A stretch of DNA of 64,000 nt from an uncultured archaeon (GTDB taxonomy: Archaea; Iainarchaeota; Iainarchaeia; Iainarchaeales; GCA-2688035): contig CAYHBD010000042.1 in the NCBI GenBank assembly GCA_964354805.1, positions 1 through 64,000 on the forward strand, in the 5' to 3' direction. Both the position numbers and the translations under genes were made by a program. Under the pieces are notes generated by a model. That model did no database searches. It saw only the letters and a program-made list of their open reading frames with translations, and had not been told where the DNA came from. This document shows positions 13,317 to 61,532 of this stretch, piece after piece; position 1 is the stretch's first letter, and every line of letters begins with the position of its first letter.

Positions 13317-13493
13317 CTCACAATGTTTGACTGAGGGCAAGCCAATTTAACGCGCCAAAAATCCAATGACGTTATCGTTTGCCATCAGCCCCTGAAAAGG
13401 AAAGCCGCGCAGTTGAAGCATTTATCGCTGCCCGCAATCCAATGTCGACTACCAAAAACTACAGCCCCAACCGCTTCTGCCAGAAATCTGCCT

Positions 13494-16400
13494 TCAGCTC
13501 CCGAAAACGAAAGCCGTTCCGTTGTAGTCAATGTACATCTCGCAGCTGTTCGAAGGGAAGCAAAGCCTGTTCACATCACTCTGAATACTCACGCCCCTAT
13601 TGACTCCAATTGAAACATTGACATCGCTGGCAATCTGCAGAGATGGGCTGCCTAACAGCGTTCCAGTGATTGACGCGTTTCTCATTACGTTTAGGTCTCT
13701 TGCAACATTAACATCCCTGCTCAACACAACACTGTAAGGAGTCTCATTAATGGCATTATAACCAATAGCAACAGAACCAACACCAATAGCAGCAAGATTC
13801 ACATCACTATAACCCAAAGCAATTGAATAATCGCCAATCGCAAAAGGACCCTTGCCCCCTGCTCCGTAGCCACCTGCAATTGCCCCTTGACCAGCAGCCC
13901 TTGAATAATAACCCAAAGCAGCGCTATAAGCTCCACTTGCAATTGTACTATAGCCCATTGCAATGCTATAGGCACTACTTGCAGTTGTAATATAGCCCAT
14001 TGCAACACCATAATTCCCACTTGCAATTGTATTATAGCCCATTGCGACACTGCCCTGTCCACTTGCAGTTGACTCCCAACCTAAAGCAGCGCTATAGTCC
14101 CCAAACGCTGTTGTTCCATGACCCAAAGCAACCGCGTTTACACCATAAGCGCTGTTTGCGTCCTTGGAAACAAACCTAACGCCATTGATACGCATGGCAT
14201 TCAAATCAGAAGCCTTCAAAGCGAAAGAACCCAAATTCACATCATAGTCAGCGCCGATGTAAGGAACAAAAGCAGCATTCACATCAGACTGACTTGGAAT
14301 GCCAGTTAGAGCTGCACCACTACCAAAGAAAGCAACAGCACTAACAGACCTAGCATTCAAATCCCTAAAATTCAAATTCACATCATAATCAGCACCAATG
14401 TAAGGAACAAAAGCAGCATTAACATCTGTTTGAGTTGGAATGCCAGTCAAACCAGCACCAGAACCAAAGAATGCCACTGCACTAATCGACCTCGCATTCA
14501 AATCATGGAAATTCAAATTCACATCATAATCAGCCCCAATATAAGGAACAAAATGATTGTTGACGTCCAACTTCCCATAGAAATTATTATTCAAATCCAC
14601 CTTACCATAAAAGTGAGCGTTAACATCAGTCTTCTTGTAATAGAAAGTGTTTAAGTCAATCAAGCTCTCAAAATGCCTATTCACATCCAACTTACCATAA
14701 AAATTAGCATTAATATCAGCCTGAGTAGGAATACCAGTCAAAGAAGCACCAGAACCAAAGTATCTTGTTGCGGTAACGCTTGCCAGATTGCTATCGCTTG
14801 TTGCACTTAAAGTTGCTGTTGTAACCGCCCCGGCTGATGTGTTAAAGCTGCCGGTGCCGGTTGAAAGGCTTGTGCCTCCTAAGTCAATTAAGTCTGAGCT
14901 GTCAGTAATTGAACCACTCCCAAGGCTCAGTGTTCCCAAAAATATATTTTCAGCACTAACAGACCTAGCATTCAAATCCCTAAAATTCAAATTCACATCA
15001 TAGTCCGCACCAACATAAGGAACAAACTGGTTATTCACATCCAGCTTGCCGTAAAAGTTGGCATTAATATCTGTTTGAGTAGGAATACCAGTCAAAGAAG
15101 CACCAGAACCAAAGAATGCCACTGCACTAATCGACCTAGCATTCAAATCCCTAAAATTCAAATTCACATCATAGTCCCCACCAACATAAGGAACAAAGTG
15201 AGCATTCACATCCAACTTACCATACCAACCAGCATTAACATCAAGCTTGCCATAAAAGCCAGCATTGACATCAGTTTTCTTGTAATAGAAAGTGTTTAAG
15301 TCAATCAAGCTCTCAAAATGCCTATTAACATCCAACTTACCATAAAAGTTCGCGTTAATATCAGTCTGAGTAGGAATACCAGTCAAAGAAGCACCAGAAC
15401 CAAAGAAACGAACAGCACTTATAGACCTAGCATTCAAATCCCTAAAATTCAAATTCACATCATAATCAGCCCCAACATACGGAACAAAAGCAGCATTAAT
15501 ATCAGTCTGACTTGGAATGCCAGTCAAACCAGCACCGCTGCCAAAATATTGCCTTGCATACAAGGCATTGAAATTGCTGTCAGAACTGAAAGACTTGATT
15601 CCATAAATCCCCAAATTCATGTCCTTTGTTGCACCAATGTATGGAACAAAGTGCGCGTTAACATCCAGCTTTCCATAGAAATTTGCATTCAAATCCACTT
15701 TGCCATAAAAGTGTGCGTTGACATCCGCTGCCTTGTAGTAGAAAGCATTCAGGTCTGCTATGCTGTGGTACCATTTGTTGAAGTCGTTGAAGCCCATGAA
15801 AGCATTCAAGTCAATGCCCATTGTTTTTCGTGAAACAAATGCGCTGCCGATCGAGCTGAACCTGATTAAAGGCGTTTGCTCCTCTCCGTTGACATACATT
15901 CCAAGCCAGGTGTTTGCATTGAAGTCAAGGCTGCTCAGCCAGCGCTGCTTGTTCAGGTCGCCCAAAACAACGCTAAAAATTCCATTGCTGACATTCACTA
16001 CCCTGGTTTCGCTCCACAGGATGTTCTTGGCTGCTTCATTTGAATCGTACAGAATGAAGTTAAAAGTGTAGTCGCCGCTTAAAGCGCTGCCGCTGCCGTC
16101 GGTAAGCCTTCCCTGCACAGTGAACAGCTCCGGAATAGCTGCCACAAGAGGTGAAAACGCAACCATGGCAAGAGCGAGCGCAATAAGCAAAGGCATTGTT
16201 CTGTTAAATGAAAAAAGGTTTTGACTTATACATAACATAGCTTTGTTTGTTCTGGAATTGCAGCCGCTTTTCTCCCCTGATTCGGATGCCTCCGTTTTGG
16301 TTTGGCTTCTTGCAACCACCCTTTCATTTACTGTTTTCTTCAGTTGGGAGATTGCGCCCAATATTCTCTTGATTGCATCCTCAGCCATGTTTCTTTCACC

Positions 16401-59982: not shown

Positions 59983-60092
59983 CCGTAAACCACTTAGAAA
60001 AATACTGGTTGTTGAATTGATTTAAATTTAACGCAATCAGGTCAATAGCCCTTTGCAAAGCAAGCCCAGTTGATATTTCGGCACAATGCCCT

Positions 60093-61532
60093 TCAATACC
60101 CCTTCGCAAAATATGCCTTTATTTCCGTTTCCTTTCCGCATTTGACGCACTTGCCCCTGGCCTTTTTCTGCCCGAAAGGAATGCACCTTGCTGTTGCAGT
60201 TGTTTCTTCCTTTATGCTTTGCTCGCATTCAGGGTTGTTGCAGAAAAATGCTGAAATCATTTTTCTTTCAGAAAGCGCTTTCTTCGCTTCAGCCCAATTT
60301 TTAGCCTCAACAGTGTTTGCAGCAAGGAATTTTTTTGCGTTATTGAATAAATTTTCCTGTATTTCTTTAAGCATTGAATCGATTTTTTTCACTGCATCCT
60401 TTTCTTTAACAATCTCCTTTTTCCCATTGTCCCTTCTCACCAAAACAACCTGCTTTTTCTCAATATCCTTCGGGCCGACTTCAACCCTTACAGGAATTCC
60501 ACGCAGCTCCCACTCATTGAACTTCCACCCAGCGCTGTACTCCTGCCTGTCATCCAGAATAGGGTTGAATTTTGAAAGCTTTCCAGCAAGCTCTTTTGCT
60601 TTTGCCGCAACCTTGCCAATTGTTTTCTCAAAAAAGATTGGCACAATTGCAACCTTGTTTGCTGCAACAGCAGGAGGCAGCACCAAGCCCTTGTTGTCAG
60701 CGTGAACCATCACAAGCGCGCCAATCAAGCGCGTTGAAAAGCCCCAGCTGTTCTGCCAGGGAACTTGCTTCTGCCCTTTCTCATCCAAATAAGTGATGCC
60801 AAATACTTTTGCAAAGCCCTGCCCAAGATTGTGGGAAGTACCCATCTGCAGTGCCTTGCCATCAGGCATCAGTGCCTCGATTGTAAAGGTTCTTTTTGCG
60901 CCTGCAAACCTCTCTGCAGCGGTTTTCTCTCCGGCAATTACCGGAATTGCAAGCAGCTGCTCGCACACTTTTTTGTATTCATCCAGATAAAGCAGCGCCT
61001 CTTTCTCGCATTCCTGCTCTGTTGCGTAAACGCAGTGGCCTTCCTGCCACAAGAATTCCCTAGTGCGCAGAAACAGCTTGCATTGCTTTACTTCCCAGCG
61101 CAGGACATTGCACCATTGGTTCAATCTGAAAGGCAAATCCCGCCAGCTTCTAATCCACTTCGCATAGCTGTCGTACATTATTGTTTCTGAGGTCGGCCTG
61201 ATTGCAACCCTTTCCTCTGCATCCTCTTTGCCTGGCTCAATCCAAGCAAGCTCCGGCTCAAAGCCTGCTGCGTGCTCTGCTTCTTTTTCAAAAAAGCTTT
61301 TTGGAATCAGCAGGGGAAAGTAAGCGTTTCTCACTCCTTGCTTTGCAATCGCTGCATTGAATTGTTCCTGTATTTTTTCCCAAATCTGGTAAGCGGCTGG
61401 CCTTATGACCATAAAGCCCCTGATGGGGGCATAGTCCGCGAGCTCTGCTTTCAGAACAACCTGGTTGTACCACTCGCTGAAATCCTGCTCTTTTTTCACG
61501 GTAATTCCAAGCCGCTTCTCTTTTTCTTCCAA
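60093..61532 (-). CDS. proS: Prolyl-tRNA synthetase (archaeal/eukaryotic type)
   Basis: TTG start after AGGTGA; DFSEWY, RPTSET, RTREFLWQEGH, QMGTSH.LGQ.F, C-terminal FAKGY. Confidence 0.97.
   Translation of the reverse strand: MEEKEKRLGITVKKEQDFSEWYNQVVLKAELADYAPIRGFMVIRPAAYQIWEKIQEQFNAAIAKQGVRNAYFPLLIPKSFFEKEAEHAAGFEPELAWIEPGKEDAEERVAIRPTSETIMYDSYAKWIRSWRDLPFRLNQWCNVLRWEVKQCKLFLRTREFLWQEGHCVYATEQECEKEALLYLDEYKKVCEQLLAIPVIAGEKTAAERFAGAKRTFTIEALMPDGKALQMGTSHNLGQGFAKVFGITYLDEKGQKQVPWQNSWGFSTRLIGALVMVHADNKGLVLPPAVAANKVAIVPIFFEKTIGKVAAKAKELAGKLSKFNPILDDRQEYSAGWKFNEWELRGIPVRVEVGPKDIEKKQVVLVRRDNGKKEIVKEKDAVKKIDSMLKEIQENLFNNAKKFLAANTVEAKNWAEAKKALSERKMISAFFCNNPECEQSIKEETTATARCIPFGQKKARGKCVKCGKETEIKAYFAKGY

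Follow-up and report, generated by a model that had tools for sequence, protein, structure and literature searches.

The subject of this analysis is the window, that is, the first 64 kb of contig CAYHBD010000042.1 from the Iainarchaeales genome GCA_964354805.1 (1.38 Mb in 49 contigs, 88.5% complete), together with the short copies of gene termini and promoters, here termed echoes, that lie beside many genes of this genome. An initial annotation of the window had listed a series of such echoes and had read them as short fragments of diverged functional alleles that a recurrent process inserts next to their cognate sites. Short spare gene ends and gene starts near their originals are genuinely present in this genome, in dozens. 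The window contains the following, in addition to the repeat at the end of a giant gene that is described further below.

38467-38490, minus strand: resident end of the histone-fold gene, VDRKFRK followed by TGA; the tail is identical in protein sequence to the orthologues in 8 relatives
38399-38462, minus strand: spacer between the histone end and its echo, with two dispersed hairpin elements
38375-38398, minus strand: echo of the histone-fold end, VDRKFRK followed by TAA, with 7 of 24 nucleotides (nt) changed, all silently, the stop included
41144-41196, minus strand: resident end (...SFSSKALG) and terminator region of the CaCA antiporter gene, unit 1 of a 65 nt tandem duplication
41079-41131, minus strand: echo of the CaCA end and terminator region, unit 2, 49/53 identical at a period of 65 nt, the T-run included
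60093-60116, minus strand: resident end of a gene of 500 amino acids (proS in the initial annotation), AYFAKGY and stop
60042-60065, minus strand: proS echo, ACFAKGY and stop, period 51, 19/24 nt identical
47385-47415, minus strand: resident end (core) of a DHS-like gene, 31/31 identical to its echo
47326-47356, minus strand: echo of the DHS-like end, period 59, after an unrelated 28 nt spacer
36860-37002, minus strand: end of a KaiC-like gene (36975-37002) with echoes at 36916-36943 and 36860-36884, periods 59 and 56
32575-32672, minus strand: end of an ssb-like gene with its echo, cores 32640-32672 and 32575-32607, period 65
3736-3814, unstranded: duplicated TATA-like promoter segment, 3736-3759 and 3791-3814, 24/24 identical, period 55
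58026-58101, plus strand: start of a GNAT gene with an upstream echo, period 49
57254-57321, plus strand: start of a PIN gene with an upstream echo, period 50, 14/17 identical
38282-38348, plus strand: end of an open reading frame (ORF) of 196 amino acids (the 'kinase' of the initial annotation) with a weak echo, period 50

Most of the echoes listed by the initial annotation were thus found in the sequence where it had placed them: the 3' echoes of the histone-fold gene, with every one of its changes silent, and of the CaCA, proS, DHS-like and ssb genes; the arrays of the KaiC-like and giant genes, each a resident end with two further copies; the GNAT and PIN 5' echoes; and the duplicated promoter. 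Those of the kinase, RNase H and ileS genes are present but weak and of low complexity. The CaCA ending ...SFSSKALG is the natural C-terminus of the protein, as it aligns with the C-termini of its homologues. The changes in the histone echo are without adenine specificity; the relatives that supply orthologues belong to other genera, with silent sites saturated, and so do not discriminate between the echo and the resident copy. Part of the histone spacer (38426-38462) has matches of 85-97% identity at many loci in this genome and in relatives. This hairpin family (…CGCCAGCCTTTTC…) lies 3' of the histone gene in two genera (window 38399-38462; G011:C10 L009), and in G011 (C10) it stands three times in tandem after the histone gene, followed by that genome's own gene-end echo.

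To place these cases on a genome-wide footing, genes were called as the longest non-overlapping ORFs of at least 80 amino acids (1334 ORFs, 88% coding), which gives exact 3' ends and only approximate 5' ends. The terminal 7 codons and stop of 1317 ORFs were compared with the 200 nt downstream at a threshold of at least 6/8 residues, with flanks swapped between genes as the control for this and the other echo tests. By this measure 50 ORFs have a 3' echo against 0.33 expected; a second, frame-blind scan of 3' ends using nucleotides only returned 66 against 1 in the control, and the comparison of gene starts with the DNA upstream returned 32 genes against 2. When all periods between 12 and 300 nt were scanned, the repeats formed a hump at 37-67 nt, which includes periods indivisible by 3 and, outside genes, takes in every residue class modulo 3. 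The echo periods concentrate at about 45-65 nt, with a median of 53 nt for events at gene boundaries and of 57.5 nt for those between genes. The periods of the 3' echoes are evenly distributed modulo 3 (15/16/19, n=50). Repeat events within genes are in frame in 68 of 81 cases, those at boundaries and between genes in 34 of 93, the share expected by chance. The annotation's further suggestion that much of the intergenic DNA consists of echoes was not supported: detectable extra units make up 7.0 of 168.6 kb of intergenic DNA (4%), and by the nucleotide test 9 of the 47 gaps in the window hold an echo unit.

Several neighbouring or more distant repeats may be recorded here. An A-rich intergenic stretch at window 34545-34724 consists of 42-54 nt repeats in 2.2-2.8 copies (Tandem Repeats Finder), a size class shared with the echoes, and a 29 nt unit occurs twice (89% match) at window 3809-3866, just past the duplicated promoter segment. 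Elsewhere in the genome, the PolB gene at C35:74471-77030 has a 23-codon tail echo 132 nt downstream, with about 67% DNA and 58% protein identity, changes that are mostly transitions and a decayed partial copy in between. The Fen1 gene (C10:43119-44168) has a 3' echo of its own, SRLSQWG and stop versus SRLDQGG and stop at a period of 53, where an 8 bp stem can form between a C-run of the spacer and a G-run of the echo.

The commonest build of an echo is a core, an unrelated spacer and the core again. Overall, cores measure 16-56 nt and spacers 0-110 nt, with no fixed ruler; among the young pairs (at least 90% identity), both within and between genes, cores are 20-37 nt long (median about 25) and spacers 14-78 nt. 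The cores of 5' echoes start at the ATG or about 40 nt upstream, in the promoter. In a minority of cases, 26% of 62 3' echoes scoring above the 95th percentile of the control, the whole unit is repeated, including the bases that follow the stop; there the coding-derived part has diverged by 17.8% and the post-stop part by 19.3%, as in ordinary tandem duplications. Nearly all spacers are unique, matching only themselves in the genome, and they have no common end motif and form no family. Exact matches between spacers and the DNA within 400 nt on either side are not enriched in either orientation; a weak direct similarity to the surroundings exists and may be compositional. No spacer was found to be complementary to its core, as snap-back synthesis would make it. 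Dispersed hairpin elements occupy the spacers of three echoes (histone, C16:23248 and C9:82132). Since long flanking direct repeats accompany only 2 of 20 hairpin blocks, or 3 with the histone block, the hairpins are passengers and not the cause of the echoes.

Five relatives give a very different picture. In gene samples from these genomes the same 3' test found no echo in 361 genes of G020 (a closed genome) or 399 genes of G019, both from other families, and, within the same family, one in 131 genes of G009, one in 174 of G004 and none in 119 of G008. Likewise, non-coding repeats with periods of 37-67 nt reach 8.05 per 100 kb here against 0-3.5 in the five relatives. The density of echoes is roughly tenfold that of related genomes. 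As these relatives have at most one echo per 119-399 genes, the excess is a property of this lineage, in which numerous short local duplications, their units about 45-65 nt long, have built up.

That the excess is confined to one metagenome-assembled genome would also fit an artefact in which contig ends of co-occurring strains were joined in series, and perfect cores beside unrelated spacers, where homology breaks off at the first variable base, are what such joining might leave. We nevertheless regard this as very improbable. Core identities form a continuum between 100% and about 55%, and the cores show a transition bias, indels and internal stops; the coding events are predominantly in frame; the resident copies end where their orthologues end; and the echoes of the giant gene are present in two copies that are 12% diverged. 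Moreover, the genome is free of Ns, and several of its contig ends overlap exactly by 141, 109, 63 or 32 nt, the 141 nt overlaps suggesting an unscaffolded de Bruijn assembly whose largest k was 141. That G011 has an echo of its own at this histone gene, after hairpins of the same family, further argues against an origin in this one assembly.

The substitutions between residents and echoes bear on the origin of the copies. Across the frame-blind echoes, 191 mismatches fall 54/49/88 on codon positions 1, 2 and 3, so that third positions carry 46% of them rather than an even share. Among the changed codons 65 are silent and 97 are not, a silent fraction of 40% against 20% for random single changes in the same tails; the synonymous bias noted initially is therefore real, though weaker than had been claimed. 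Such a bias can be modelled with a resident copy that accepts silent changes only and a spare copy that accepts all changes, for which the silent fraction is 2f/(1+f); a neutral f of 0.2-0.3 predicts 0.33-0.46, which brackets the 0.40 observed. The pooled excess is thus what duplication followed by one-sided decay predicts, because one selected and one freely decaying copy suffice to produce it, whereas two functional alleles would give far more. In keeping with a spare copy under little constraint, many echoes hold internal stops, frame slips or radical changes.

On these grounds, with a probability of about 0.5, we consider most echoes to be in-place duplications shaped by selection and one-sided decay, and a minority to be replacements of gene ends by diverged DNA. 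The duplications would arise in place through replication slippage or template switching, and selection would purge those that break genes. The survivors would be those that straddle stops, starts or promoters, or that sit in frame in tolerant coding regions, and they would look like echoes of gene termini because selection had removed the gene-breaking remainder. Thereafter the copy within the gene would be held by purifying selection while the spare copy decays. The finding that the resident copies are the natural protein ends, in the histone by comparison with 8 orthologues and in CaCA with its homologues, supports this reading. In the minority class, diverged DNA would replace the gene end by recombination and leave the native end stranded.

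Several observations weigh against this account. In 74% of the 3' echoes the spacer cannot be aligned with the sequence after the echo, and this holds even beside cores of 27-31 identical bases, pairs that uniform decay cannot yield. Core 3' edges cluster at the stop, 26 of 43 lying within -2 to +7 nt of it. The counts of silent and non-silent changes are over-dispersed (chi-square 94.5, where simulation gave a mean of 55.9; P <0.0002): one group of echoes has silent changes only (6/0, and 3/0 in four cases) and another has only non-silent ones. The protein-level search adds the silent-only cases QKSSAAL and stop (8 changes, with a serine that switches codon family), KKKFKIR and stop (5) and PLGVMKG (6). 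Where the stop triplet of the echo differs from that of the resident, 12 of 17 are still stops, against about 45% expected (P ~0.03); this excess is weak, the expectation being estimated from the transition bias seen here together with what the selected copy contributes. Finally, no enzyme defect was found in this genome that would explain a lineage-specific rate of duplication, and Fen1 is present. The identical cores beside unrelated spacers may represent older duplications, in which the selected, indel-free coding part stays alignable and the non-coding part drifts, with cores possibly re-homogenised by short-patch gene conversion. They are nonetheless the main unexplained point; homogenisation, target duplication and allele fragments each explain only part of them.

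The last of these is the reading of the initial annotation, generalised: pieces about 55 nt long, derived from diverged functional alleles in related strains, would be pasted beside the resident locus as a rule, pairing by homology at the conserved coding part and joining illegitimately at their other end, so that the echoes would be scars of gene flow. The silent-only echoes are its natural exemplars (histone 7/0, QKSSAAL 8/0, KKKFKIR 5/0 and the 6 silent changes of PLGVMKG), and it would account for homology that ends at functional boundaries (the stop, the ATG and about -40), for stops that are often swapped and yet stay stops and for spacers that are unique in the genome and not copied from the adjacent DNA. 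The 23-codon PolB tail echo, with its 58% protein identity, and the allele-like replacement at the giant gene point the same way. As a general rule, however, it appears unlikely. The pooled silent fraction of 0.40 lies far under the level of two selected alleles; a donor close enough to give an identical core should share the 3' untranslated region (UTR) as well, which the unalignable spacers contradict; and in-frame events within coding regions also have the core-spacer-core build, whereas an allele fragment would be homologous throughout. Nor was a donor found: in a search of about 15 billion proteins, the closest homologue of CaCA reaches 76% identity. A metagenome scan gave no relative of the CaCA protein, and an identity look-up of the histone and CaCA proteins gave no record. 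A recurrent, lineage-specific process that places short copies of termini and promoters beside their originals is supported, whereas diverged functional alleles are not supported as its general source. There is a caution here for genome scans: because a selected and a decaying copy already give a twofold silent excess, silent-looking echoes chosen by eye exaggerate allele exchange.

A related and more doubtful possibility is a dedicated or favoured short-patch process that pastes locally homologous pieces of about 50-60 nt, from the cell's own DNA or from related strains, beside the cognate site; the pieces could be, for instance, mis-incorporated oligonucleotide-sized intermediates of recombination or replication. 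If it operates, it would steadily add to the intergenic DNA and supply extra promoters, extra starts and in-frame inserts in proteins.

The build of the young pairs, with cores of 20-37 nt around unique spacers within as well as between genes, recalls the target-site duplications of the same length that staggered cuts would leave on the insertion of pieces of 15-60 nt, hairpin modules among them, and three echoes do hold dispersed hairpins in the spacer. We judge this origin improbable: core length is variable, the spacers lack a shared end motif or family, long direct repeats flank few hairpin blocks and a quarter of the echoes are whole-unit tandem repeats. Moreover, neither Cas1 nor a reverse transcriptase was found in this 88.5% complete genome.

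Least probable of all, by our estimate, is that the echoes are retained because they serve a function, for instance as mini-ORFs that are translated, as signals in the 3' UTR or as additional promoters. In its favour, most echoes retain a stop, their reading frame extends slightly further upstream without a stop (11.2 codons, compared with 8.4 and 8.7), and both duplicated TATA-like boxes could be active. For translated mini-ORFs, however, in-frame upstream ATGs are not in excess (7 against 6 and 9). The even distribution of periods modulo 3, the many echoes with stops or frame slips and the absence of echoes at most genes of the relatives also speak against retention for function.

Other candidate causes were considered and set aside. 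Loss of Fen1 as a duplication mutator is excluded by its presence here as in the relatives. Integration of the Cas1 type was dismissed as the 88.5% complete genome has no PF01867 match and repeat and spacer lengths are not fixed, and a retroelement or diversity-generating retroelement as the same genome has no RVT_1 match and the mismatches are of all types (116 transitions to 75 transversions). Insertion of elements like miniature inverted-repeat transposable elements does not agree with nearly all spacers being unique and with long flanking repeats at only 2 of 20 hairpin blocks, and dispersed elements account for spacers in only about 3 cases. The uniformity of the periods modulo 3 removes read-through or in-frame extension, and a bulge-helix-bulge intron was set aside on the single ground that the direct repeats lack the pairing it requires. 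Small RNAs (sRNAs) of the C/D box class at gene ends were also considered; the pattern occurs twice in the genome against once in shuffled sequence, neither time at an echo. The sole non-coding match in the genome is the 55 nt intergenic segment at window 52537-52591 on the plus strand, which fits the archaeal C/D box sRNA pattern (C, D', C', D). An Rfam scan of the window returned one tRNA only; the tRNA gene at window 32258-32377 (minus strand) spans 120 nt, which implies an intron of about 45-50 nt.

The minority component of our preferred reading, replacement of gene ends by diverged DNA, is best illustrated at the end of the giant gene, where a repeat of about 180 nt flanks a cargo gene:

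13383-13562, minus strand: end of the giant gene (last 22 codons, stop 13494-13496) with echoes at 13445-13468 and 13385-13418; upper copy of the repeat of about 180 nt
12048-13316, plus strand: cargo gene of 422 amino acids between the two copies, with AAA_14, DUF4143 and weak Mrr_cat domains
11692-11869, minus strand: stranded lower copy, with the giant-gene end and both echoes, outside any long ORF

The two copies are 88% identical. Over their 66 coding bases they differ by 7 substitutions, all at third positions and without an indel, and over 109 non-coding bases by 17 differing sites and 3 indel columns. Because both copies contain the short echoes, the latter predate the split of the two copies and are thus long-lived. 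The cargo, matched by AAA_14 (1e-32), DUF4143 (7e-20) and, below the curated cut-off, Mrr_cat (6e-4), is the sole gene between the copies. We infer that this repeat is the clearest case in which recombination with diverged DNA has replaced a gene end and stranded the native one, and the histone echo behind two mobile hairpins is likely to be a second. Judged by its sequence, the segment 11692-13562 is a candidate gene-end-replacing selfish cassette in DPANN archaea. The case supports the initial suggestion that the echo-forming process with cargo could explain the ATPase cassette: an ATPase gene lies between diverged gene ends, with 7 of 7 coding changes at third positions. It is the one such case, and cargo genes are absent from all short echoes. 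Amplified DUF4143 nuclease genes were rejected as the cause of the excess, there being one such gene in this genome and 0-4 in relatives.

If the echoes prove real in reads, this very compact archaeal genome documents, in nature, the ways in which non-coding DNA, promoter duplicates and small protein inserts originate. The narrow unit of 45-65 nt points to a physical or enzymatic ruler.

Among known systems, the WHO elements at yeast FBA1 (PMC7282813) and the mobile ORFs found in fungal mitochondria (PMC3630166) both replace the 3' end of a gene, leaving its native end stranded. The giant-gene repeat resembles both in having two copies of a gene end that flank an insert and differ mainly silently. 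In contrast, the short echoes have no cargo gene, and their pooled substitutions are not allele-like; homing by the ATPase-nuclease is only putative, and a lone DUF4143 gene cannot explain the excess of echoes. Homology-facilitated illegitimate recombination in naturally transformable bacteria (PMC3240628) and short-DNA recombination in Sulfolobus acidocaldarius (PMC3367456) both combine homologous pairing at one end with a non-homologous join at the other, and very short DNAs can serve as substrates. By analogy, either process could set a foreign gene end beside the native one, although neither is described with a preferred spacing of 45-65 nt. With palindromic elements of the Rickettsia type the echoes share the hairpin modules in three spacers, and these modules form arrays with periods of 50-58 nt; unlike such elements, most echo spacers are unique, and the hairpin blocks usually lack long flanking repeats. 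Finally, the echoes depart from stop-straddling tandem duplications and minisatellites in that most pairs share only a core around an unrelated spacer, the unit is narrowly 45-65 nt, the density is about ten times that of relatives, and the same build recurs at starts, at promoters and in frame within genes. Nevertheless, like them, the echoes set the last codons, the stop and the following bases head to tail, with 26% repeated as whole units; the resident copy remains intact while the spares decay, and the KaiC-like and giant genes have arrays of 2-3 copies.

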